Shown here piece after piece: positions 27,396 through 55,890 of a stretch of DNA of 64,000 nt (its first letter is position 1; each line of letters starts with the position of its first letter). The notes below the pieces were generated by a model that was not told where the DNA came from, searched no databases, and was given only the letters and a program-made list of their open reading frames with translations. The translations under genes and the position numbers were made by a program. This stretch comes from an uncultured virus (IMG/VR IMGVR_UViG_3300040816_000784) (lineage: Duplodnaviria > Heunggongvirae > Uroviricota > Caudoviricetes): the IMG/VR virus record IMGVR_UViG_3300040816_000784, one strand, 5' to 3'.

Positions 27396-28254
27396 TTTTG
27401 TTTTCTGATAATGTTGAGTAATATAAAAGTGTTTCCTCATTCACACCATTGTGATTATGTTGTTTACTTAATATAATATTCAAATTAGGCAGAGCATTTT
27501 CGAAACACTTTTCAATAACATAACTCTTAGATCTACCAGCAACATTAAAGTCCCAACCATTTATAATATGTTTTGCTACAAACTCATCTTTGTTTGTATC
27601 AAGTATTTTATTTACTTGCATACGTCTATGGGGAGATATAGTTTCACTTTCATAACCTTTAGAAACTAATTTTGCAGTAGCATCTACTATGTCATCTGTT
27701 TTAATAATAAGTGTATCAATATCGTCACTAGTGCTGTGATTGTCCCACAGTATGTTAAATCTATTATTGCTACATACAGTAGTTGTATAGTTGTCTGTTG
27801 ATCTAACGTTTTTAAATTTTAATTGTTCTGATATAACGTTGCTAGGATTAAATGCACTTCTTATTATAATACCTACAAAGTTATTTAATGGTAATTCTGA
27901 ACCTGCTTCATTTGTTGTAATAAAGTGCTTATCATACACTTCTTTAAATTGCTCTACTGGATATGAGTATATGTTTATACCATTTGGACCTTTACCTAAA
28001 TTCATACCAGTTGTTTCACAATACTTACTGCCATCTACTGCATTGCTGTTTAAACCTATACCAGTAATGCCTGTTGGCATGTTTGAATGCCTAGACACTA
28101 ACAGTATACATTTGTTGACTGCCCACATAGTAGACAAATGGTTTCTTGATATGCTGATTTCGTTGAAACCTAAACCACGTAAAAGTACCACAACATTTGT
28201 AATGTCATGTTCATCTGGGTTTACGTTATACTCTAGAAATACTACTTCAGACAT
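27379..28254 (-). CDS. Divergent 4-hydroxyphenylpyruvate dioxygenase-like (VOC fold) protein
   Basis: VVFLEY..LRGLGF..SRNH N-terminal pattern; DIDTLIIKTDDI aligns by eye to GIQHIAxxTDDI; C-terminal QHNHNGVNEETL. Confidence 0.45.
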   Translation of the reverse strand: MSEVVFLEYNVNPDEHDITNVVVLLRGLGFNEISISRNHLSTMWAVNKCILLVSRHSNMPTGITGIGLNSNAVDGSKYCETTGMNLGKGPNGINIYSYPVEQFKEVYDKHFITTNEAGSELPLNNFVGIIIRSAFNPSNVISEQLKFKNVRSTDNYTTTVCSNNRFNILWDNHSTSDDIDTLIIKTDDIVDATAKLVSKGYESETISPHRRMQVNKILDTNKDEFVAKHIINGWDFNVAGRSKSYVIEKCFENALPNLNIILSKQHNHNGVNEETLLYYSTLSENKNVTVQ

Positions 28255-28612
28255 CGAATGTTACACTCTCTCCACAACCACAAGAACCAACTGCTTTAGG
28301 AGATGTAACAATCAAAGATAAACCTTTAATGCCTTCGTCTTTAATATCTATTAGACTACCCTCTAATAAAGGTAGACTTAATTCGTTCACTAGTAGTACA
28401 AATCCATCGCACTCTAGGACATAGGCATATTGATTAGAATAGTATTCAGATACAAGTTCCCAGTCATATTCAAATCCAGCACAACCATTAGGTATTAGAT
28501 TAAGTTCTACTCCTATGTGACTGTCCTTTTGAACTTGTTGGCGTAAATGATCCTGTGCAACTTTAGTTACAGTCAGTTTTTCGCCAGGGTGAAAAGTTTT
28601 TAATGCATCCAT
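28247..28612 (-). CDS. A-type Fe-S carrier (IscA/SufA family)
   Basis: GCAGFEY and CGCGES motifs. Confidence 0.9.
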   Translation of the reverse strand: MDALKTFHPGEKLTVTKVAQDHLRQQVQKDSHIGVELNLIPNGCAGFEYDWELVSEYYSNQYAYVLECDGFVLLVNELSLPLLEGSLIDIKDEGIKGLSLIVTSPKAVGSCGCGESVTFDV

Positions 28613-28624
28613 ACTATTATTTAT

Positions 28625-29215
28625 CTAAGATCTTTGATCAATTATCTCGTCTGCTAATCCCCATGCTAAGGCCTCTTTAGCATTCATAAAGTTGTCACGA
28701 TCCATAGCCGCTTCAAACTCTTGGTATGTTTTACCTTTAGCATTATGCTTAACATAGATATTTGTGAGCTCTTTTTTGATTCTAATAATCTCTCTAGCAC
28801 GGATTTCAATATCACTTGCTTGTCCACTTGCACCGCCTAATGGTTGGTGAATCATTGTTCTAGCATTTGGTAGTAAAAATCTTTTACCTTCTGCACCTGC
28901 TTGAGCAAGTAAACTTCCCATACTAGCCGCTTGGCCCATAACAATAGTTGATACATCTGGTTTGATATACTGCATTGTATCGTACATTGCCATACCACTT
29001 GTAACAGTACCGCCTGGTGAATTGATATAAAAGTTGATATCTGAATTAGGGTCATCTGCTTCTAAGAATAGTAATTGAGCACAAATGGCATTAGAAACAG
29101 TATCATTTACTTCTCCATTTAAAAACACAATTCTTTCTTTAAGTAGTCTGCTGTAGATATCATAACTACGTTCACCTGCACTTGTTTTTTCGATTACATA
29201 TGGTATAAAATTCAT
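28625..29215 (-). CDS. clpP: Clp protease proteolytic subunit
   Basis: [38 protein letters not shown]. Confidence 0.97.
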
Positions 29216-29605
29216 TTAATTTCTCACTATTGATAAAACTTTGTTCATAAAACTTCTAACACCTGTAATTCTTCCTGTGGTTAAATTACTTGGACATATA
29301 AAAGCAAACTTATCATTAAAGTTTATATTTAAAATATCTTCATCACTCATTTCAACAATGTGTGACATTATTATGTTAAGTAAACCTTGAACGAATATGG
29401 CATTTGATTCCCATAACCATTCGCTGTTTTCTCTAGATACCCAAACAAGACTTTGACATCCGTATACACGATTTACATCTTGCTTTAACATGCTCATTTT
29501 AGTGTCATCTTGTACAACACTATCCATGCCATGTTCCATGATGTACTCATGTAAATCTCTTGCTTCTAAGGTATCTAACCACTCAAGGTCTTGTTTCTTT
29601 AACAT
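29216..29605 (-). CDS. sufE: SufE-family sulfur acceptor
   Basis: VYGCQSLVWV, ESNAIFVQGL, LTTGRITG match SufE GCQSxVW / DSDAxIVKGL / LSxxRxNG. Confidence 0.8.
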   Translation of the reverse strand: MLKKQDLEWLDTLEARDLHEYIMEHGMDSVVQDDTKMSMLKQDVNRVYGCQSLVWVSRENSEWLWESNAIFVQGLLNIIMSHIVEMSDEDILNINFNDKFAFICPSNLTTGRITGVRSFMNKVLSIVRN

Positions 29606-29611
29606 GGTATT

Positions 29612-29640
29612 ATTATACGACAACTTTGTTACGTTGTCAA
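29612..29640 (-). promoter_or_regulatory. Consensus sigma70 promoter for sufE-clpP (leaderless)
   Basis: TTGACA-17 nt-TATAAT, 6 nt before ATG 29605. Confidence 0.85.
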
Positions 29641-29650
29641 TATGTATTTA

Positions 29651-29986
29651 CTAATATACGCCTTTACCAAAGTCAAATTGTGATTTGTTTTTCTTTTTCT
29701 TTTTGTGAGGTTTTGTGCCCCAAGAACTGAAATGTCCTGAGACGGTTGGTGCGGAATCAGAGGGAGAAGTGTCACCACTTCCTGCAGACCCTCCGCCTCC
29801 ACTTGAATTTCCGTGAGCACCGCCACCCGTACCATTGCCAGGTCCGGCTCCACCACCTACGCCTGCACCAGCACCTGATCCTGCTCCACCAGAGGCTCCG
29901 CCTCCAGCACCGCCGCCACCTGCTCCTGCTTCAGCATCAAGTCTCTGCCGTACTTTTATGCCTTCGTAGATTTCTGCTATTTTCAT
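29651..29986 (-). CDS. Glycine-rich small protein
   Basis: MKIAEIYE start, long Gly/Ala/Ser tract, poly-Lys near C-terminus; TATAAATA box 6 nt upstream. Confidence 0.65.
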   Translation of the reverse strand: MKIAEIYEGIKVRQRLDAEAGAGGGGAGGGASGGAGSGAGAGVGGGAGPGNGTGGGAHGNSSGGGGSAGSGDTSPSDSAPTVSGHFSSWGTKPHKKKKKNKSQFDFGKGVY

Positions 29987-30416: not shown

Positions 30417-30581
30417 TTAGTCCTCTTTCTTAACTATTGCCCAGATACCATATGCAAGACCGGCCCATGCCGCCATCTTAACAATGCCACCAAACAATAT
30501 GATTGCTAGTGAGCCGGCAATGATAACACCACCATCCCAACTAGTTCTTTCTTTTATTCTTGCTTTAATATAATCTAACAT
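30417..30581 (-). CDS. 54-aa two-TM membrane protein (not in ORF track)
   Basis: MLDYIKARIKERTSWDGGVIIAGSLAIILFGGIVKMAAWAGLAYGIWAIVKKED; AGGAG SD and GATAAATA box. Confidence 0.8.
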   Translation of the reverse strand: MLDYIKARIKERTSWDGGVIIAGSLAIILFGGIVKMAAWAGLAYGIWAIVKKED

Positions 30582-31393: not shown

Positions 31394-31441
31394 AATTACT
31401 CCTACATAATTCTGTGTTTTGTCTACGCAAGTATTTATCAT

Positions 31442-31470
31442 AAAAAAAGGCTACACAAGGTAGCCTTTTA
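31442..31470 (-). terminator. Intrinsic terminator
   Basis: AAAAGGCTAC-ACAAG-GTAGCCTTTT with longer A tract on the left. Confidence 0.75.
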
Positions 31471-31512
31471 GGGAGGATTATGAATATTATATTCTTAAAT
31501 CTGTTTTTGTTG

Positions 31513-31680
31513 TTACATGATCGGCTTCATTGCCACATACATAAACCAAATTACAAAAAGAATACCACCTAAAGTAAAGATATCGTTGCACGTTTGACCG
31601 TCAGGACAATACTTTAGTTTAATATTCTTTAGTGTTTGGATTGTAGGCGCAACAGCCGACTTAATAGTATCGGTTGTCAT
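31513..31680 (-). CDS. 55-aa peptide with C-x5-C and C-terminal TM helix
   Basis: MTTDTIKSAV...YCPDGQTCNDIFTLGGILFVIWFMYVAMKPIM; CAGGAG SD 8 nt upstream. Confidence 0.7.
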   Translation of the reverse strand: MTTDTIKSAVAPTIQTLKNIKLKYCPDGQTCNDIFTLGGILFVIWFMYVAMKPIM

Positions 31681-31689
31681 TTTCTCGTC

Positions 31690-31889
31690 TCCTGAGTCTA
31701 AATCAATATTAGCTCTCACATTCACAGTATCTTACGATCACTGCTAGGGGGTTAAAGTTCTAAACTTTTAATTGTGCTTCGTAATGTTGTATCTTCACAT
31801 TGAGATCTACAGCGGATACTCACCGCTACAACCGACAGCACACAACCGTCCCTTGGTGGAAGTAGGATTGCTATTACACTTCCAATGGG
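31690..31889 (-). ncRNA. Structured 5' leader / riboswitch-like RNA, class unassigned
   Basis: Five or more hairpins plus an enclosing helix between a GATAAATA box (31890-31897) and the SD. Confidence 0.65.
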
Positions 31890-31910
31890 TATTTATCTTT
31901 ATATGATGTT

Positions 31911-33776
31911 TTAAGTGTTTTTTGTGGTATTTTTTATAATACTTTTACCCCACCCTTGTCTGCGTCTAAAATATAACCTGTTAAAGTATTCTTCACCTTT
32001 AACATTTTCACCAATATCTATATTGTATATGACATTTGAATTTTTTAATTCGTCTATACCGTTTATATATTCGTAAATGTTATACTCTTGCAACACTTGG
32101 TGTGGATAGTAATGATCTTCTTTTGTTGTATAGTTTTCTTGTGCAGTCATAAGTGAATAAAATAAATCAGGTTTTAAATCACAAAACTCTTCTGTGAATG
32201 TATCCTTAACAATTTTTTCTACTGCATGTGGGAATCGATGAAAATCTTTTTGTGCCTCCCACATCAATGTATGTCCACTAGCAACTTCAATTTCACCAGT
32301 TTCTAAATACTCTGCAAGTAAAACTCTTGCTTGATTAAAAGCCTTACCAACTGGACCTTCATCTTCTTTGATTTTTTCTAATAGTCTATCATACATCATT
32401 TCATAACTGTAGTCTTTATACATTCTAAGGAACCTAGTTATTACTTGGCTCCAACCAAAGTTATGAAAGTTGTTTATCATCCAACTGTAACTCCAGGCAT
32501 CAATAAATTTAGGTGTAGGCATATACTTTGTGCCTGTAACTAATTCTACTTTCTCTGGAATGTTATCTTCTTCCTCAAAACCACTAATGTAATTTTCTAC
32601 AATAACAGTTGTGAGTCCATGCTTTTCCCTTTCTTCGGGTAAGTTCATGTGTGCATTTTCTAGTAATTGTGCTAACCAACTTTCTATAGCATTGTGTTGT
32701 CCAGCATCTAAAACTTCGCATACACCACGTTTCCAACTTTCGTAAGTTTCTTTTGGTAAGCCTAATATGAGTTCTGTGTAACTGGGTATGTTTTCTCTGT
32801 TACACTTATCAAAAATCATTTTGAGATCAGACATTTCCATATTACGTCTTTTAATCTCATCAAGAACATCCATATCCATGCTTTGCACACTTAATGTAAG
32901 TCCTCTATTAAAGCCACTACTGATAAACTTTTTAACAATTTCTAATATTTCATCACTGCTGTTCTTGTACCATGTGGCATCAACTACTTTAGGATAACCA
33001 TATTCGTTTTGCAATTCAACTAACTTTTCTGTAAACTCTAAATCTCTGTCTGTGAATACACCAAAATTAGCATCAGCAATAGTAACATAGTCTACTTGCT
33101 TTTCAGACATCCATGTAAGTTCCTGTAATACTTTAGGTACAGGAAACTTTTTAATCTTAGCATAAGTTAAACTACCCCAATCACAAAATGTACAAGCAAA
33201 AGGACATCCTCTGTTTGTTTCTATTGTGCCATTCCATAAATCATCTTTTGGTGCATCTGCCATAATTTTATCAAATACGCCTGTGAGGTATGGACTGGGT
33301 ATATCTAACTCTGTTAGTCTACCGCCTTGATATATTTTATCTAGTGTCTCGCCTTTGAGAATTTTGTTTAACATTTCCACAAAGGATTGCTCTCCTTCAC
33401 TTAGGGAGATTGAATCAACATAAGGGTGCTTTGCAAAGAATTGTTCTTCCTCTGGTCTACTTGTAACCTGAGGTCCTCCAAATACAATAATTGATTCTGG
33501 ATTCGATTCTTTTATCTTTTGTGCAACATGTTTATTGTATTCCCAATTCCACATGTAACAACTAAAAAAGAATACCTTGCAATCTTTAATACGTTCTACT
33601 AATTTGCAAGGCTCTTCTCGTTTATAGATAATATCAGCAACTTCAAAATTATCACGTACCCAATCTTCTTGAGCCGCATAACTCCAAAGACAACCAACCG
33701 AATAAGGTAGCCAGTAGCCAGTGAAAGAACCACCACCTATTTTGAAATTAGGTTGGATAAGTACTATCTGGTTCAC
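31911..33776 (-). CDS. Cobalamin-binding radical SAM protein
   Basis: N-terminal B12-binding-type domain (SCYMWN, GGPQ); ETNRGCPFACTFCDW; ELILGLP. Confidence 0.9.
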   Translation of the reverse strand: MNQIVLIQPNFKIGGGSFTGYWLPYSVGCLWSYAAQEDWVRDNFEVADIIYKREEPCKLVERIKDCKVFFFSCYMWNWEYNKHVAQKIKESNPESIIVFGGPQVTSRPEEEQFFAKHPYVDSISLSEGEQSFVEMLNKILKGETLDKIYQGGRLTELDIPSPYLTGVFDKIMADAPKDDLWNGTIETNRGCPFACTFCDWGSLTYAKIKKFPVPKVLQELTWMSEKQVDYVTIADANFGVFTDRDLEFTEKLVELQNEYGYPKVVDATWYKNSSDEILEIVKKFISSGFNRGLTLSVQSMDMDVLDEIKRRNMEMSDLKMIFDKCNRENIPSYTELILGLPKETYESWKRGVCEVLDAGQHNAIESWLAQLLENAHMNLPEEREKHGLTTVIVENYISGFEEEDNIPEKVELVTGTKYMPTPKFIDAWSYSWMINNFHNFGWSQVITRFLRMYKDYSYEMMYDRLLEKIKEDEGPVGKAFNQARVLLAEYLETGEIEVASGHTLMWEAQKDFHRFPHAVEKIVKDTFTEEFCDLKPDLFYSLMTAQENYTTKEDHYYPHQVLQEYNIYEYINGIDELKNSNVIYNIDIGENVKGEEYFNRLYFRRRQGWGKSIIKNTTKNT

Positions 33777-35698: not shown

Positions 35699-35803
35699 AA
35701 TTGTCTCCTTCTGTGTCAGTGTGTTGTATTACATTTTATAATACGAAAATTATTTATCTAACGATTATTATATGATAAATAATATTGAGTAATATTTTAA
35801 CTC

Positions 35804-35916
35804 ATCGTTCATCTCGAAAGAGACGGAAGTAGTTATAAGACGAAGGAACGCCGAAATCGTTCATTCACTCTAAATGTAGCAGTGAACGGAAGTAGGTTAT
35901 AGTACCGAAGGAACGC
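35804..35916 (+). ncRNA. Tandem glnA-motif (glutamine-I) riboswitch, aptamers at 35804-35851 and 35856-35916
   Basis: Each copy reads AUCGUUCA-[P2]-CGGAAGUA-[P3]-GAAGGAACGC; P1 CGUUC/GAACG; P2 UCUC-GAAA-GAGA or UUCACU..AGUGAA; AGUA/GAA E-loop. Confidence 0.88.
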
Positions 35917-35937
35917 ATCTTTGTAAAAGGAGATGAC

Positions 35938-36087
35938 ATGACTAAGTATCAAGAAACAGTACTCGTAAGACGTGCTGTACAAAAACAACTTAAGAAAGAA
36001 AAGAATGTGTCAACTCTGAGTTTCCCCACTATGGAGAAAAAATCAGATTGGCCTAAGTATATCACAGATAATCCTTTCTATCCTTAA
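35938..36087 (+). CDS. 49-aa basic peptide downstream of the riboswitch (not in ORF track)
   Basis: MTKYQETVLVRRAVQKQLKKEKNVSTLSFPTMEKKSDWPKYITDNPFYP; AAGGAG SD; terminator 5 nt after stop. Confidence 0.8.
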   Translation: MTKYQETVLVRRAVQKQLKKEKNVSTLSFPTMEKKSDWPKYITDNPFYP

Positions 36088-46958: not shown

Positions 46959-47314
46959 ATTACTACATAGTCTCTGATTAGTGTGTTAAGAAATAAAATA
47001 ATTCCCACACCATTTAACAATATGAGTGCTCTGTCTTTCCATAAAAAGCCTACCCACATCCAACCTGCTACACCAACTAAACTTAACATCAAGTCATATT
47101 GTTGTAAGCCGTCTACTCCTCTAATGCTCATACTGGAAAGAATAAAAATACTAGCAATCCATTTTATATACCAACTTAAATCTTGTTTGGGTGTGGCACT
47201 TTTCTGTATTCTGTTAGAGTGTTTAATCTCGCCTACAGTGAACTCTTGGCCTTTTGCAGTTTCAATAATAACATCATCTAATTTTTCTGAATGTGGTTTA
47301 ACTGTTCTACTCAT
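46955..47314 (-). CDS. Three-TM membrane protein
   Basis: SWYIKW...WKDRALILLNGVG. Confidence 0.7.
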   Translation of the reverse strand: MSRTVKPHSEKLDDVIIETAKGQEFTVGEIKHSNRIQKSATPKQDLSWYIKWIASIFILSSMSIRGVDGLQQYDLMLSLVGVAGWMWVGFLWKDRALILLNGVGIILFLNTLIRDYVVI

Positions 47315-47646
47315 AATATGCCTAACTGATATTTTCCTTCATCGCTGATTGCGTCTGGATTCCAAGGTGGATCAAATGTAAGTACTACCTTTACATGATT
47401 TAATCCGTTGACTGCCCTTGTGGCAAACTCTACTTCCATTGGTAGTATTTCTGCGGCTGGACAATTTGGTGAAGTAAGTGTCATTATAACCTGACAGTCA
47501 TATTCTTTGTTTACTTCAACGTTATAAATAAGTCCTAAGTCATAAACGTTTAAATTTATTTCAGGATCAAATACTCTTTTTAAATTTGCTACAACTAAGT
47601 CTAAGAATTCTTCTTGTAATGACTTATCTTCTCTAGTGTCTTCCAT
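47311..47646 (-). CDS. sufT: DUF59 Fe-S assembly protein (SufT-like)
   Basis: VFDPEI..NVYDLGLIY, MTLTSPNCP, FDPPW. Confidence 0.9.
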   Translation of the reverse strand: MEDTREDKSLQEEFLDLVVANLKRVFDPEINLNVYDLGLIYNVEVNKEYDCQVIMTLTSPNCPAAEILPMEVEFATRAVNGLNHVKVVLTFDPPWNPDAISDEGKYQLGIL

Positions 47647-48830
47647 AATCCCTCTACTAGTTGTACACAATCGTGTTCGTTGTTATATGGTGCTGAACTA
47701 ACTCTCAATACACCGGTGTTTTCTTTATTAAATCTTCTACTGGCAGGCTGGGCACATAAGTGACCTGTCCTAACACAGACTTTATCAAAGTTTAAATATG
47801 ATGCAATATCACTTGGATTTATGCCTGGCGTTACAAAACTGTATACACTTCGTGGACCTATATCACCAATTAGTTTTAATTGTTCAATATCAAACAAACC
47901 TTTATCATTTAACATGTTAAAGAAGTCTGCTTCACATTCTTGTATATCTTTGTAACTAATATCTTGTATCCATTTAGCCGCGGCTCCTATGGCATGTACT
48001 CCTGCTACGTTGGGTGTACCTGCTTCTACTCTTTTGAAGTCAGGGTATAATGAATACTGACTGAAGTCTGCAAAACTTACAGTTCCCCCACCTATGTCAT
48101 GACTGCCTTCAGCAAGATCTACAAATCCGCCTCTGTGAAATAATACACCGGTACCAGTAGTAGCATACATTTTATGTCCACTAAATACTAGCCAGTCAAT
48201 ATTATTTTTTGCTACACTAATTGGCTCGTGTGCTATACTTTGACATACATCTAATATAACATCACAGTCATACTCTTTGGCAATCCTAATCATATCTTGC
48301 CATTTTAATTTTATACCAGTTAAGTTACTTTGTGTTAAAAATGACACAATGCTACCTGGATTATCTTTTACTGCTTTTGTGAAATCTTCTATACTGACAT
48401 CACCGTGATCACTTGCTGGCACTACAACGATTTCATATTTGTGTTGTAGCCAAGGCAATATGTTACTGTGATGTTCAAGTTCTGTTAGTATTACTTTACG
48501 TTTACTTTCTTTATAATGTCTAGCAATAATATTAAGTCCTTGTGTTGTACCAGCAGTAAAACTTACTTCACTAATATCAGACTCAATTAAATCTGCAATA
48601 TGTTGTCTTGCTTGATCAAACTTATCACTTGCTATACTACTAGTTTCAAAATCACCTCTATGTACATTTGCTCTGTAGTTGTAATGATAATCACTGACAG
48701 CCTTAATTGCACTATCAACTGTTTGACTACTAGCGGCATTATCTAGATATACTAAATCAGAATATGCTAAACTAGGGAAACAATTTCTTATCTCCTTTAT
48801 TGCTTTTGTTTTATTGTATACGTTTAGCAT
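47601..48830 (-). CDS. sufS: Cysteine desulfurase, group II
   Basis: YLDNAASSQ, ANVHRG, EHHSNILPW, SGHKM, EAGTP, RTGHLCAQP. Confidence 0.93.
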   Translation of the reverse strand: MLNVYNKTKAIKEIRNCFPSLAYSDLVYLDNAASSQTVDSAIKAVSDYHYNYRANVHRGDFETSSIASDKFDQARQHIADLIESDISEVSFTAGTTQGLNIIARHYKESKRKVILTELEHHSNILPWLQHKYEIVVVPASDHGDVSIEDFTKAVKDNPGSIVSFLTQSNLTGIKLKWQDMIRIAKEYDCDVILDVCQSIAHEPISVAKNNIDWLVFSGHKMYATTGTGVLFHRGGFVDLAEGSHDIGGGTVSFADFSQYSLYPDFKRVEAGTPNVAGVHAIGAAAKWIQDISYKDIQECEADFFNMLNDKGLFDIEQLKLIGDIGPRSVYSFVTPGINPSDIASYLNFDKVCVRTGHLCAQPASRRFNKENTGVLRVSSAPYNNEHDCVQLVEGLWKTLEKISHYKKNS

Positions 48831-50080
48831 AAAAAACTCTCAATTAAAATTTCTTCTATGTTTTCAACACCTCGGCTTTGTAAGTAATACTTTTGATGTT
48901 CATTTATATTACTAATAGTACAACCATGTTGGCATTGTATTTCTTTTGTTTTAATATCTAGTATTGGTCTAGTATGCATTTTAGTATTCTTGTTTAACAT
49001 TAGATTTTGATTGTTCATAGTACCATTAAAATTTGTACTCATTGAACCAACATCATAACGACCAATAAAACTAGTGTTGGCGTATTCGTTACCAACATTT
49101 TTAATATCTATATTACTGTAATTATCAACATCGTTGCTAATATGATGTATGAACTGGTGATAATCGTTTCCTTTGTGAATATTGTTTCTACCTATCACTT
49201 CAACCTTGTTACCAGATGAACTCTGTATGTAAAAATTTTCTTGTGTATATTGGCTACCAGTGTTTGTAGATTTAATTGTTAGTTCGCTATTAGGGTGGCA
49301 AATAAATACACTATCAAACAAACTCCAACCACCTTTATCTTTTGTTGTTCTATCTATTTCAAGTTTACTACCTTCACGTAAAATATAAATGCTGTAATTC
49401 ATTTGTCCAGCACTAGTTCTAACTTTTTCTTTTAGTTTTACACTAACGTTATGTTGTATATCAAACATAGTTGTATTGCTGGATAATGTGTTTTCTTTAA
49501 GTTCATTTAAGTAATTTACAGTCAATGGTTTCTTTTCATACAACTGTTTACTACTAGCAGGAAATACCATTATGTTTACAAAAGGACTAAGTGAATATGT
49601 AGTGTTTGTAAAATTATCCATTTGCTTGATATACTTTATATACTCCTTTTGTTTTGAAGTATTAGTTGTAATAGCATCAAGTATAGTTACACTAGGCGAC
49701 CTATTGTGAGAGATATTGTTACTAGCAAGAACTGTGCCATCTACAATAACCATTTCATTTGATTTATCTGCTACCCATTCAAAATCACCATAAGATGATT
49801 TTCTATCTGTTCTAGGAGCAATCTCTAAACCATATAGTTTATGTAGATTAGAAAAATTAAATTGTTCGCTTTTAGGATTAGGCAACCCTGTTTGTTTAAG
49901 ATATTTTAAATTATCTATATATGGTTTTTCAAAAACATTAGCATAACTTACAACATTTTTATCATCAAGTAATCCTGGTAATAATGTTTCTGTGGTGAAT
50001 TCAAACAACTCAGATAATTTGTAGTTGTCTGTTTTTTGAGGGTCTGCTAGTAATACTTCTGCAAATAAATTCTTATACAT
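48824..50080 (-). CDS. sufD: SufD-like protein (divergent)
   Basis: GLPNPKSEQFNFSNL; C-terminal TRPILDI..IQCQHGCTI...YYLQSRG; position between sufC and sufS. Confidence 0.82.
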   Translation of the reverse strand: MYKNLFAEVLLADPQKTDNYKLSELFEFTTETLLPGLLDDKNVVSYANVFEKPYIDNLKYLKQTGLPNPKSEQFNFSNLHKLYGLEIAPRTDRKSSYGDFEWVADKSNEMVIVDGTVLASNNISHNRSPSVTILDAITTNTSKQKEYIKYIKQMDNFTNTTYSLSPFVNIMVFPASSKQLYEKKPLTVNYLNELKENTLSSNTTMFDIQHNVSVKLKEKVRTSAGQMNYSIYILREGSKLEIDRTTKDKGGWSLFDSVFICHPNSELTIKSTNTGSQYTQENFYIQSSSGNKVEVIGRNNIHKGNDYHQFIHHISNDVDNYSNIDIKNVGNEYANTSFIGRYDVGSMSTNFNGTMNNQNLMLNKNTKMHTRPILDIKTKEIQCQHGCTISNINEHQKYYLQSRGVENIEEILIESFLC

Positions 50081-50768
50081 TTTCAAACCCACTACTAAAA
50101 ATTTTATCTGCTAATGACTTATCACCAATTTGTACACCGTCTTTTTTAAGTAAGACAACAGCATCTGGGTTTAAACCATCAATGAGTTTTTCGTAGTGAG
50201 TAACAACAACCAATGTGTTGTTTTCGTTTTTCCAGGTAGATAGTTTTTCTATAAGTGACTTTATACCGTCAACATCTAAACCACTATCTGGTTCATCTAA
50301 CATTGCAATTTTAGTGTCTAACATAAGCATTTGTATGAGCTCATTCTTTTTCTTTTCGCCACCACTTGCGTCTGTGTTTAAGTTTCTTTTATCCCATTCT
50401 TCTGGCAAGCCTAATTGTGTACTAATATCTCTAAACTTATCTAAGTTTTCTTTTAAGTCGATTGCTTTAATATTGTTTGCTTGTCTGATAAACTGGAAGT
50501 TACTTAATCCTGGAATACTAGTAGGTGCTTGAAAACCTATAAAGATTCCTAGTTTTGCACGTTCATCAGTTTCAAGTTCTGTTAAGTCTATACCATTAAA
50601 TTCTACATCACCGTGTGTATCAAGATCAGGTCTTCCCATGATACCATGTAATAATGTGCTTTTGCCTACGCCATTAGCACCCATAACAACATAAGTCTTA
50701 CCTTCCTCAAAGGTAATATCAACATTGCTGAATATATCTTTAATACTAAAATTTTGTAGTTTTAACAT
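50073..50768 (-). CDS. sufC: Fe-S assembly ABC ATPase
   Basis: GANGVGKST, SGGEKKKNE, LDEPDSGLDVD, VTHY. Confidence 0.95.
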   Translation of the reverse strand: MLKLQNFSIKDIFSNVDITFEEGKTYVVMGANGVGKSTLLHGIMGRPDLDTHGDVEFNGIDLTELETDERAKLGIFIGFQAPTSIPGLSNFQFIRQANNIKAIDLKENLDKFRDISTQLGLPEEWDKRNLNTDASGGEKKKNELIQMLMLDTKIAMLDEPDSGLDVDGIKSLIEKLSTWKNENNTLVVVTHYEKLIDGLNPDAVVLLKKDGVQIGDKSLADKIFSSGFENV

Positions 50769-50774
50769 AAGGTT

Positions 50775-50803
50775 ATTATATACTATTTCTCTTCGCTTGT
50801 CAA
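50775..50803 (-). promoter_or_regulatory. Consensus sigma70 promoter for sufCDST (leaderless)
   Basis: TTGACA-17 nt-TATAAT, 6 nt before ATG 50768. Confidence 0.85.
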
Positions 50804-50941
50804 TTTTAAAATATAGTTATTGGCATCTTCTTCGGTGAGAAATTTTCTCTCCTTAATGATAACATTAGCATCATTATATAAAACTGCTCTATACGATATT
50901 TTATCACCTTCAAAATGTGTTGTAACAACTTGCCAATTCAT
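50783..50941 (-). CDS. 52-aa ORF between sufB and sufC (not in ORF track)
   Basis: [56 protein letters not shown] overlap with sufB stop. Confidence 0.65.
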
Positions 50942-52383
50942 CCTACTGCTCCTTCTAATGTAACACCTAATAAACCATTCGCCTCAGCGGCAAACTCTAA
51001 AGGAAGTTTTTGAAAAACGTCCTTACAAAAACCATTTACAATCAAGTTCATTGCATCGTCTTCACTTAATCCTCTGCTTTGCAAATAATACATTTGCTCT
51101 TCACTGATTTTACCAGCACTTGCTTCATGCTCTAAAACAGCAGAATCGTTTTGACATGTTACATAAGGTAATGTAAGTGCTCTACTATCCTGTAGCATTA
51201 AACTATCACACTTAGTATAGTTCCTGGCATTGTGAGCACCTGGATTTACTTTAACAGAACCTCTATATGTATTTGTACTATCGCCAAAACTAATACCTTT
51301 AGATATAATGGTGCTTTTGGTGTTCTTACCAATGTGTATCATTTTAGTTCCTGTGTCTGCTTGTTGTTTACCTTTGGTGACAGCAACACTAAAAAATTCT
51401 CCTATACTGCCTTCGCCTTTTAATATACAACTTGGATATTTCCAAGTTACTGCTGAACCAGTTTCAACCTGTGTCCAACTTACTTTTGAATTCTTGCCTT
51501 CACACTTTGCACGTTTAGTAACAAAATTATATACTCCACCTACGCCGTTCTCATCTCCTGGATACCAGTTTTGTACTGTTGAATATTTTATTTCAGCATT
51601 ATCTAGGGTCACTAGCTCTACACACGCCGCATGTAACGTGTTTTCATCGTATGCTGGTGCTGTACACCCTTCTAAGTAACTAACGTAACTGTCCTCGTCT
51701 GCTATAATAAGTGTGCGTTCAAACTGCCCTGTGTTACGAGCATTTATGCGGAAATATGTATTAAGTTCCATAGGACATCTTACACCCTTTGGAATATAGC
51801 AAAATGTTCCGTCTGTGAATACTGCTGAGTTTAGTGTAGCAAAGTAATTATCTGTATATGGTATAACACTACCTAAATACTTTTTTACTAAGTCTGGATG
51901 TGATTGTATGGCTTCGCTGATGCTACCAAATACAATACCATACTTTTCTAGTTCTGCTTTGAATGTTGTAGCAACACTAACACTATCAAATACTGCGTCA
52001 ATGGCTACTGAAGGAATAACATTTGGATCTTTTTCAATACCAAGTAATGCGTCACGTTCGTGTAATGGTACACCTAACTTTTCAAATGTATCAAATATTT
52101 CTTGTGGGATATCATCTTTGTCTCTGCTTTTAGGTGCTGAATAATAACTGAGGGCCTGATAGTCAATTGGATCATAATTTAATTCACTCCAATCAGGCTC
52201 AGCCATTTCTTGCCAACGTTTAAATGCTTTTAGTCTAAATTCCAATAACCATTCGGGCTCTTCTTTAATTGCACTGATATTTCTTATAGTGGATTCATCA
52301 AGGCCAGGAGGTAAACTTACCGAATCTGTTTCGGTACTAAACCCTTCTTTGTATTTGGTTTGATTTAAATTATTTACTGTCAT
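50938..52383 (-). CDS. sufB: Fe-S cluster scaffold SufB
   Basis: [50 protein letters not shown]. Confidence 0.97.
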
Positions 52384-53391: not shown

Positions 53392-53464
53392 AATAATCTC
53401 CTTAAATTAAGCAAGTTTATATTCTATTTTCCTAAGATGTTTAAACCCAATTGGCGAATAAACA

Positions 53465-53838
53465 AATCGTCTTTAGCAGGGCATTCGTTAGTGTGTGTCC
53501 TGTCCTGCTAAATCCTTCCCTAACTTCGCTTTCTACTAACAGGTGTTGCCATCTATTAGTCTGTACTTGGTAGGGCCAAGTTGTATTTCTACACGTGGTC
53601 GATTAGGCCCGTGCTCTTTTGAAGACTTATATTGCAAAGCCCGAGCACTTTTGAAGATCTAATCTTCCTAGCCTCTTATTACTATCCAGTCACAATCATC
53701 CGTAGTAGGCAAATTTCACTTACGATCCTTTTGCCCTTACTTCGATTGCTCCCTTCGTTTGCACATCGAGGGCAATTTTGATTTGCAGTAGACTTTAGTT
53801 TCTTACGATTCTATTGCCCTTGCATTTCTAAATTGCAA
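53465..53838 (-). ncRNA. Candidate large structured ncRNA, class unassigned
   Basis: ORF-free, less AT-rich region with about 9 helices, GNRA loops, two 19-nt internal repeat pairs; upstream TATAAATA box. Confidence 0.7.
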
Positions 53839-53841
53839 AGT

Positions 53842-53888
53842 TATTTATACAACTTATATATTATATAGTGTTTTTTTGGTAAAAATCA
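53842..53888 (-). promoter_or_regulatory. T4-type late box plus sigma70-like promoter in front of the ncRNA/hsp20 unit
   Basis: Exact TATAAATA at 53842-53849; TTGATT-18 nt-TATAAT further upstream. Confidence 0.65.
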
Positions 53889-55238: not shown

Positions 55239-55243
55239 AAACG

Positions 55244-55450
55244 TTATGATTCGTCTTCGCCATAACGTCCACGTTCACGATTGCCATCACTGTTAAGTTC
55301 CGTAAGGTCTTGTTGTTTGTGTTTGAAATTTTTTTCTACTTCTGGTGTTTTCTTTCCCCAAATCCTTTCCCAAGAATCTGCGTAAGTGCTATTGTCACTG
55401 CTTACTTTAGATTGAATACTGTCACCAGTAATGTCATTTTTTGTTGCCAT
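55244..55450 (-). CDS. Hypothetical phage protein
   Basis: 68-aa ORF with AAGGA SD. Confidence 0.65.
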   Translation of the reverse strand: MATKNDITGDSIQSKVSSDNSTYADSWERIWGKKTPEVEKNFKHKQQDLTELNSDGNRERGRYGEDES

Positions 55451-55637
55451 TTTCCTTTGCCTTATTAGTGCGTTCCTCTGCTGTTACTAGAACCGCTTCA
55501 CAATGAGGACATGTTAAATCAATATCTAACATATCACAAATTGCTTGGTGTTTTACAAAATTTTCTTTAGGTTCTTTTTCCATACTATTCCACATTTCTG
55601 TTGGTACAGGGTAACCCACGTGCTTAATAGTTTGCAA
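55434..55637 (-). CDS. Small protein with CPHC motif
   Basis: 67-aa ORF overlapping neighbours. Confidence 0.55.
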   Translation of the reverse strand: MQTIKHVGYPVPTEMWNSMEKEPKENFVKHQAICDMLDIDLTCPHCEAVLVTAEERTNKAKENGNKK

Positions 55638-55890
55638 TGAACTTTAACTCATTATCAACTTCAGGATCATTCAAATGCCCTTTGACATCTGGATAGTCTT
55701 CGTTGTAATATATTTCGTTACCTTTGAGTAAGGCAAGTTCCCATAGACCTTTTTTGCCACCGTAACTATATTTATGCTTAATTACACTAGCACCGTAACC
55801 ATTCTTGAACTTGTACACATATTGTATACCACCGTATTCAGGTTTGTGTGTTTCAAAAGATTCTAACAGGTCGCTGTCTCTCATACTCAT
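55624..55890 (-). CDS. Hypothetical phage protein
   Basis: FKNGYGASVI...SYGG..GLWELA. Confidence 0.7.
   Translation of the reverse strand: MSMRDSDLLESFETHKPEYGGIQYVYKFKNGYGASVIKHKYSYGGKKGLWELALLKGNEIYYNEDYPDVKGHLNDPEVDNELKFIANY

Follow-up and report, generated by a model that had tools for sequence, protein, structure and literature searches.

The window, a stretch of 64,000 nucleotides (nt) from an uncultured virus of the Caudoviricetes (IMG/VR record IMGVR_UViG_3300040816_000784), carries on its minus strand a structured RNA leader directly in front of the gene for a membrane peptide of 55 amino acids (aa). A preliminary description, made from the sequence alone, had proposed a multi-stem leader of ~200 nt at this place. 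Comparison of 68 homologous leaders establishes that this RNA is real and conserved, that it is placed strictly ahead of the peptide gene, and that two alternative conserved structures exist within it. We interpret the leader as an uncatalogued, riboswitch-like translational control element of ~210 nt on a monocistronic phage transcript, a reading derived from sequence comparison for which we estimate a probability of roughly 0.58. The riboswitch-like translational role suggested earlier is thereby retained as the best reading; the mechanism suggested with it, pairing of a UGAGU loop with ACUCA, is not.

Conservation and covariation of the leader RNA

A search with the peptide yielded 8 viral loci whose upstream regions show 76% mean column identity with the window and visible compensatory changes. 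Six of these loci were used to build a covariance model (R1), with which all later candidates were sorted. Pattern scans for the P5/P6 region and for P4 (helices are listed in Table 1) returned 33 and 67 viral loci, of which 16 and 24, respectively, were true, and all 22 distinct true matches that were inspected have a peptide homologue directly downstream. A profile made from the peptide alignment (A4) found 155 relatives in marine metagenome contigs; 80 of these loci were kept, and at 73 of the 80 the RNA lies on the same strand and ends at the start codon (3 of the 73 are clipped by the contig end). Among viral peptide loci, 20 of 48 have the RNA. The model matches the window once, at 31681-31889 with 192 bits, and no further match was found elsewhere in the window or in ~405 kb of DNA flanking the loci, nor was the RNA found without the peptide among the collected loci. 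The unit had no nucleotide match among 50,697 phage genomes on deposit, protein searches with both peptide subfamilies were likewise negative, and the nearest record (G001, a 48-kb fragment) contains no match to the RNA. The most divergent leader collected (L188:528-689, 50.5 bits) precedes a 46-aa peptide that lacks both cysteines of the motif described below.

The 68 distinct leaders, from marine viral and metagenome contigs, were aligned as A7. Standard pairs occupy 94.9% of 2956 cells in this alignment, and 36 of the 47 modelled pairs have changes on both sides (406 cells); the covariation that the preliminary description had asked of homologues upstream of the peptide is thus present. In controls in which the 3' partner was slid by 1-3 columns, 35-43% of cells were paired and 9-11 pairs were compensatory, and none of 500 shuffles reached the pairing values of A7. 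Because A7 was fitted to the model, alignments made by MAFFT only were also examined. Among six sequences 15 of 47 pairs were compensatory, as were 24 of 38 among 24 diverse sequences, and these alignments recovered P1, P2, P3a, P3b, P4, P5, and P6. The leader is a conserved structured domain in a 5' untranslated region (UTR) with covariation, as is expected of a riboswitch.

Table 1. Features of the leader, its transcription unit, and neighbouring gene regions. RNA position 1 corresponds to window position 31889; SD, Shine-Dalgarno sequence.
Feature	Window position	RNA position	Strand	Remark
Promoter-like box GATAAATA (NATAAATA type)	31897-31890		-	4-5 nt 5' of P1
Non-coding leader, 209 nt	31889-31681		-	between GATAAATA box and start codon
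P1 hairpin UGGAAGU/ACUUCCA	31884-31857	6-12/27-33	-	predicted 5' end
P1-loop stretch complementary to P6 5' strand (window: UAGC + UC)	31873-31866		-	RNAduplex
P2 enclosing helix AGGG-AC-GGUUG/UAACC-CCCU	31853-31746	37-40/141-144, 43-47/136-140	-	holds P3 and P4
P3 variable domain (P3.1, P3.2, P3.3, P3a, junction GUAG, P3b)	31842-31773		-	
P3.1 UGUGCU/AGCACA		48-53/112-117	-	
P3.2 UCG/CGA		55-57/109-111	-	
P3.3 GUUGU/ACAAC		58-62/100-104	-	
P3a AGCGG-UGAGUAU-CCGCU, loop UNNGUAU		63-67/75-79	-	
P3b AUCU/AGAU		84-87/96-99	-	
P4 hairpin AAAGUU-UAG-AACUUU	31768-31754	123-127/131-135	-	sequence-invariant
P5 hairpin, GNRA tetraloop (GUAA)	31744-31724	146-150/162-166, 152-154/159-161	-	
P6 hairpin UGAG-AG-CUAA...UUAG-A-CUCA	31718-31693	172-175/194-197, 178-181/189-192	-	abuts SD
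SD AGGAG	31693-31689		-	8 nt 5' of ATG; sequence reading
Gene for 55-aa peptide, stop codon included	ATG at 31680, end 31513		-	open reading frame (ORF)
Terminator-like hairpin and U-run closing the unit	31469-31438 (also given as 31469-31445)		-	intrinsic type
SUF/chaperone gene regions	28247-29623 and 47311-52383		-	

Three helices proposed in the preliminary description, namely UGGAAGU/ACUUCCA (P1), AGGG-GGUU/AACC-CCCU (P2), and CAGU-AUC-GUAA-GAU-ACUG (P5), covary among homologues. P1 has 7 pairs, 5 of them compensatory, with 90.8% of cells paired over the 68 sequences; all 9 pairs of P2 are compensatory (92.1% paired), and its AC bulge is conserved. P5 has 8 pairs, 7 compensatory and 99.1% paired, between conserved flanks AGC and GUGAA, and its loop is GUAA, GAGA, GUGA, or GCAA among relatives. 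The closing G-U at the base of P5 is invariant (68/68), and such invariant G-U pairs fit only the minus strand. P6, the hairpin beside the SD that was absent from the earlier list of stems, has 9 pairs (7 compensatory, 98% paired), and the last base of its 3' strand is also the first of the SD. GGAG 5' of the start codon is kept in all aligned leaders.

P4 reads AAAAGUU-WAGG-AACUUU in most relatives, with a loop of AAGGA or UAGGA. It is 99.4% paired, and no pair is changed on both sides: three of its five pairs never vary, and the other two deviate by one unpaired cell each. Covariation therefore neither supports nor refutes this helix.

The P3 domain is shortened or absent in several relatives and is thus considered peripheral. 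Paired cells amount to 92.4% in P3.2, 87.9% in P3.3, and 88.5% in P3a; where P3a is missing, P3.3 persists with altered sequence, as judged by eye. P3.1 varies in length and is misaligned in A7 (41% paired). Attempts to fix it in alignment columns gave inconsistent columns that were at best 67% paired, so no second covariance model was made and P3.1 rests on a duplex test. In this test cognate strands of P3.1, which had been listed earlier as UGUGCU/AGCACA and is upheld here, pair at -4.06 kcal/mol as compared with -1.02 kcal/mol for non-cognate strands (n = 33, 0/5000 permutations). The corresponding values for P3b are -2.27 and -0.42 kcal/mol (n = 22, 0/5000 permutations).

Other pairings that had been read from the single sequence found no support, or support in part, in the comparison. 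The hairpin drawn around UGAGUAU was upheld in its inner part, AGCGG/CCGCU (P3a), and not in its outer part, UGU/GUA, which competes with P3.3. The stem AAUGU/ACAUU is 62.4% paired as compared with 63.6% in shuffled controls and is replaced by AUCU/AGAU (P3b) and GUUGU/ACAAC (P3.3). Pairing of the UGAGU loop with ACUCA, on which the earlier mechanism depended, reached 71.7% against 68.9% in shuffled controls, with two compensatory cells and the central pair present in 8 of 48, and is not supported.

Alternative pairings of the P6 5' strand

The 5' strand of P6 is also complementary to the loop of P1, with which it forms a pseudoknot. The 3' part of the loop pairs with the outer P6 strand, the bulged G, and the first bases of GCUAA, and the two partners change together clade by clade, as in CAUUGGUC with GACUAGUG, UAGC-A-AUCC with GGGU-GCUA, and GCACU-A-CUC with GAG-AGUGC. 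Over 42 distinct combinations of P1 loop and P6 5' strand, cognate partners pair at -6.71 kcal/mol and non-cognate partners at -4.96 kcal/mol (0/2000 permutations). With one representative per distinct target (n = 25) the values are -6.75 and -4.70 kcal/mol (0/5000), and shuffled P1 loops reach -3.56 kcal/mol in this set. The two strands of P6 itself, used as a positive control, gave -5.45 versus -3.84 kcal/mol. No cognate advantage was found by the same test for the P1 loop against P5, the P2 5' strand, the SD region, or the P6 3' strand, and since these controls used the same sequences, their null outcome speaks against common ancestry as the sole source of the signal. The cognate target ranks first to fifth for 15 of the 25 loops. 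Pairing between the P1 loop and the P4 loop was also considered and was dropped on inspection by eye, as it fits some clades (CCUU:AAGG, CCUA:UAGG) and not others.

The pseudoknot and P6 are mutually exclusive because the bases they use overlap, and they are of similar strength: over 53 distinct sequences the pseudoknot duplex averages -7.2 kcal/mol and the P6 hairpin -5.45 kcal/mol. During synthesis the P6 3' strand emerges last, after P1 and the P6 5' strand; the pseudoknot therefore has the chance to form early and to be displaced by P6 afterwards. A leader variant (L158/L159, the same as L205/L206) lacks the loop and 3' strand of P6, and its pseudoknot target, GAGAGUGC, lies 7 nt from GGAGG.

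The consequences for the ribosome binding region were modelled with partition functions for the 68 leaders plus 45 nt of coding sequence, with the P6 5' strand either withheld from pairing or not. When it was withheld, the 6 nt ahead of the SD were more often unpaired (probability 0.48 instead of 0.17). No U-run comes after P6, and in every case the SD is where the RNA ends; any control would thus act on translation or mRNA fate and not on termination.

Proposed switching and alternative explanations

In the mechanism that we favour, the P1-P5 domain would most likely act as the sensor. When this domain is folded or occupied by an effector, the pseudoknot would be held and P6 blocked, and ~20 A/U-rich bases before the SD would stay single-stranded; otherwise P6 would form, and the SD would become helical at its 5' edge. 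Peptide synthesis could be tuned in this manner. The two structures may gate access of the ribosome, with the pseudoknot as the putative ON state. A more specific proposal, which we regard as possible but distinctly tentative, is that the leader represents an orphan riboswitch class of large uncultured marine phages, in which a ~165-nt aptamer (P1-P5) would bind a metabolite or ion, lock the pseudoknot, and set the level of the peptide late in infection. One possibility for the trigger is an iron- or redox-linked signal, considered here because the unit accompanies genes for SufE, IscA-like, and radical-SAM proteins.

Several observations weigh against a switch of this kind. The fold of the single leader sequence (minimum free energy -49 kcal/mol, z = -0.89) was equalled in stability by 40 of 200 shuffles; folding better than shuffled controls, which the preliminary description had made a test of its proposal, was thus not obtained for the single sequence, and the case for the RNA rests on comparative evidence. 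In the window itself the pseudoknot (4+2 pairs, -5.5 kcal/mol) is among the weaker ones, 6 of the 25 P1-loop representatives place their cognate target at rank 10 or worse, and the permutation tests correct only in part for common descent. In the models the GGAG core is almost equally exposed in the two states (0.45 versus 0.48) and P6 covers just 1-2 bases of the SD, so that occlusion of the SD is not shown and the ON/OFF direction given above is a guess. The L158/L159 variants have no P6 3' strand yet retain the pseudoknot target; the P6 hairpin is therefore not indispensable as an alternative, and these variants suggest that the pseudoknotted fold is the core device. The gene context (iron-sulfur [Fe-S] genes, radical-SAM, Hsp20) indicates no clear ligand. 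Finally, one contig from an RNA library extends 20 nt upstream of the promoter-like box.

The invariance of P4 could instead reflect a translational operator, in which an RNA-binding protein of the phage or of its host would recognize the P4 loop and the GGA of the SD in a two-site repression of the CsrA type, with the rest of the fold serving to present the sites. CsrA binds GGA in hairpin loops and at the SD, and GGA is found in both the P4 loop and the SD of the leader. P4 is also the sole helix without two-sided changes although it is 99% paired, as would be expected for sequence-specific recognition; a tertiary contact or a ligand pocket would account for its invariance equally well. No CsrA, Hfq, or other RNA-binding family was detected in the 64 long and 28 short ORFs of the window, which covers 64 kb of a larger genome, and an operator leaves the covarying competition between the pseudoknot and P6 unexplained. 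We consider this explanation unlikely.

Less likely still is a constitutive 5' stabilizer or translation enhancer, whereby the fold would guard the mRNA from decay that depends on its 5' end and provide a standby site, the second pairing being a folding intermediate. P1 begins 4-5 nt past the promoter-like box, the SD core is about equally exposed in both states, and some variants lack the P6 alternative, all of which would suit such a role. However, a terminal hairpin is all that a stabilizer needs, whereas the 68 sequences conserve ~165 nt with junctions, a GNRA loop, and unpaired bases that never vary, and both of the exclusive pairings are maintained by compensatory change.

We regard as improbable an RNA thermometer or other physical sensor, in which the A/U-rich P6 beside the SD would melt upon a temperature or ionic change during infection. 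The weakness of P6 (mean -5.45 kcal/mol) and its A/U-rich composition fit this idea, and RNA-less relatives of the peptide gene start 9-11 nt after an Hsp20 gene, in keeping with a heat-shock theme. Known thermometers, however, are short hairpins that sequester the SD, and here the SD core lies outside P6; a weak hairpin holding the SD or start codon does not make up the whole of the leader, whose large conserved upstream domain (~165 nt) would be superfluous. ROSE and FourU gave no Rfam match at E<=10. Least probable of all is a free-standing non-coding RNA that works in trans or as a catalyst and happens to be transcribed together with the peptide gene. The RNA is larger and more elaborate than many riboswitch aptamers, and a relative is abundant in RNA libraries (contig depth 46-58). 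Every copy found, however, accompanies the peptide gene and stops at the SD with P6 next to it; no terminator or processing signal separates the RNA from the ORF, and no ribozyme family is matched.

A switch explains the covarying competition better than any of these rivals. Only a few regulatory RNAs of such complexity are known that are native to phages and not borrowed from a host. The leader is represented by dozens of diverse sequences that covary strongly, contains two structures in competition, and precedes one conserved gene, so that probing, compensatory mutants, and ligand screens can be applied to it directly. If it does sense a metabolite or ion, a phage would be seen to follow the physiological state of its infected cell and to time a membrane peptide accordingly, and there would be a handle on a peptide encoded beside Fe-S assembly and chaperone genes in abundant marine viruses. 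Were it a protein operator or a stabilizer, it would still be a well-defined new RNA family for Rfam.

Gene context and comparison with known RNAs

On the minus strand, the end of a B12-binding radical-SAM gene (31911-33776) is followed by the GATAAATA box, the leader, AGGAG, the 55-aa ORF, and the terminator-like hairpin; the downstream neighbour is a class-3 lipase gene with an ATAAATA box of its own. A monocistronic unit with its own terminator, as described earlier, is borne out by this arrangement. A G+C-rich hairpin and U-run also lie 3' of the peptide gene in 11 distinct relatives, as judged by eye, and at L196 and L215, and they are kept even where SufE is the next gene. In 63 distinct upstream regions that were aligned, an ATAAAT(A) core is found at a constant distance, 4-5 nt 5' of P1. 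The box is GATAAATA in most relatives and TATAAATA or CATAAATA in a few. Within the window, 16 of 31 ATAAATA sites fall in intergenic DNA (12.3% of the window), mostly just 5' of genes. Transcription probably starts just after the GATAAATA box. In T4-like cyanophages the reported late promoter is NATAAATA (PMC2984593). By its sequence the box resembles a T4-type late promoter, and use of a T4 late system by this phage is a candidate assignment only. Its tail-like protein is nearest (34%) to those of phiCbK-like Caulobacter phages, and its SufB is nearest (61%) to that of a Microcystis jumbo phage.

Two further ATAAATA boxes, in the regions 53392-53848 and 55239-55775 (minus strand), lie 450 and 530 nt 5' of the next long ORFs, which encode Hsp20 and a 133-aa protein; the stretches in between may be long leaders or may contain small ORFs. 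A conserved 16-bp palindrome, TTAAC-N6-GTTAA, is located ~6-8 nt 5' of GATAAATA in L106, L121, L087, and most other relatives, and is itself preceded by a AAAAUACCA-like sequence; the copy in the window is degenerate. It may serve as an operator or as an element of the -35 type.

The unit is covered by assembled contigs of four metatranscriptome runs, each from a different study, which span 31479-31917, 31472-31872, 31472-31840, and 31494-31843. These are pieces apart from the contigs of the lipase and radical-SAM genes, and a relative of the L106 type has a contig depth of 46-58 in RNA libraries. Contigs can prove neither transcription nor its ends, and we take these as a faint sign of separate expression of the unit.

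The peptide (MTTDTIKS...YCPDGQTCNDI...), a tail-anchored protein with a C-x5-C motif, has a C-terminal hydrophobic helix and no charged tail. C25, G28, C31, and M47 are invariant in A4, the first three of these within Y-C-P-D-G-Q-T-C. No name for the peptide was obtained from Pfam, PHROGs, a search of 5.8 billion proteins (NCBI names), or the ESM Atlas, and its profile gave only two chance matches of 8-10 residues, and no real homologue, in 185,579 prokaryote genomes (one per species). At five RNA-bearing loci (the window, L190, L200, L207, and L209) a radical-SAM gene lies upstream and a class-3 lipase gene downstream; other RNA-bearing loci have NAD synthase upstream (L197, L208) or SufE downstream (L196, L205, L208, L215). 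A second peptide subfamily (MQxAxRFLNRYAS...; viral loci L202-L204 and L216-L236, metagenome loci L102, L114, and L116-L120) has no RNA and starts 9-11 nt after an Hsp20 gene, which was the upstream ORF in 6 of 6 cases tested. Here the run is Hsp20, peptide, IscA/HesB-like ORF, and T4-type lysozyme (lysozyme in 5 of 5 tested). A second RNA between the peptide and lysozyme genes of these loci was ruled out, as the gap is coding and contains the IscA/HesB-like ORF. The peptide thus occurs without the RNA, and it tends to sit among Fe-S and chaperone genes. Modification of the peptide by the radical-SAM enzyme, in the manner of a ribosomally synthesized and post-translationally modified peptide (RiPP), was not favoured, given that the unit comes with a promoter and a terminator of its own and that the genes beside it differ between loci. 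A holin-like role of the peptide in lysis is possible but unsupported; a scan of 64 long and 28 short ORFs of the window detected no endolysin family.

The window contains a near-complete SUF set for Fe-S assembly (SufB, SufC, SufD, SufS, an FeS_assembly_P protein, SufE, and an A-type carrier). The SUF proteins encoded are of the types B, C, D, S, E, A, and T. The window also encodes ClpA/B-like, ClpP, ClpS, DnaJ, Hsp20, PhoH, ferritin, and cytochrome c proteins, a peroxiredoxin, ACP with KAS, and an L33-like ORF. Just after the class-3 lipase gene, a 54-aa ORF (30417-30581, minus strand) with two hydrophobic stretches and a charged KKED end looks holin-like from its sequence. A 111-aa ORF (29651-29986, minus strand) consists mainly of Gly/Ala/Ser runs (GAGGGGAGGGASGGAGSGAGAG...) and has no family match.

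At the gathering score, the 4227 models of Rfam 15 gave only two matches in the whole window, both to the glutamine riboswitch (RF01739) at 35804-35919. A scan of 31400-32000 at E<=10 returned six chance-level matches and nothing relevant: five lie on or beside the terminator (31400-31536), and one is a 14-bit microRNA model on the opposite strand. The families without a match to the leader include wcaG and the known riboswitches and ribozymes. The strong Rfam match that would have removed the novelty of the leader was therefore not found, and the RNA is confirmed by covariation instead. No description of the leader was found in the covered portions of the literature on structured phage RNAs and marine phage riboswitch candidates. 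The manA RNA motif (RF01745), which had been suggested as a possible identity, is a multi-stem 5' element with a marine and phage setting. It gave no match even at E<=10 and has a different downstream gene, and the leader is therefore not manA.

The stem-loop upstream of lambda S (sdi) is a single short hairpin that chooses between two starts and sets the holin/antiholin ratio. Like the leader, it is an RNA structure immediately 5' of the start of a small phage membrane protein that tunes translation; the leader differs in having a 200-nt multi-domain fold and one start, and its peptide is not shown to be a holin. The DNAVirus_X catalogue comprises 8,495 candidate RNAs of 29-151 nt that were mined by covariation from IMG/VR intergenic regions (PMC10690425). 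The leader differs from these entries in its length (~150-215 nt), and the catalogue could contain a fragment of it; the P4 string is absent from six supplementary files of PMC10690425, among which the alignment files are not included.

The glutamine riboswitch, which is found before small ORFs in marine phages and cyanobacteria, shares with the leader its genome, a promoter-like box, and a small ORF as target. In the window two tandem copies (35804-35854 and 35856-35919, plus strand; 58 and 60 bits) follow an ATAAATA box at 35775 and precede a 49-aa ORF (35938-36087, plus strand) with no Pfam family, and the phage thereby offers a precedent for a tiny protein under riboswitch control. The glutamine riboswitch has a different and much smaller fold (53 positions), and the leader does not match RF01739. 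There is also a likeness to translational riboswitches with a pseudoknot or switching helix by the SD, examples of which are SAM-II, preQ1-II, and ZTP. These share with the leader a position in the 5' UTR, a covarying sensor-like domain, a variable peripheral arm, a pairing between a loop and the 3' tail that rivals a helix adjacent to the SD, and the lack of a terminator. The leader is distinguished from them in that it has no Rfam match, its pseudoknot does not include the SD, and it is known from uncultured phages only. We place it with the structured RNAs that act in cis ahead of a gene, probably as a new family among these and as a candidate riboswitch.

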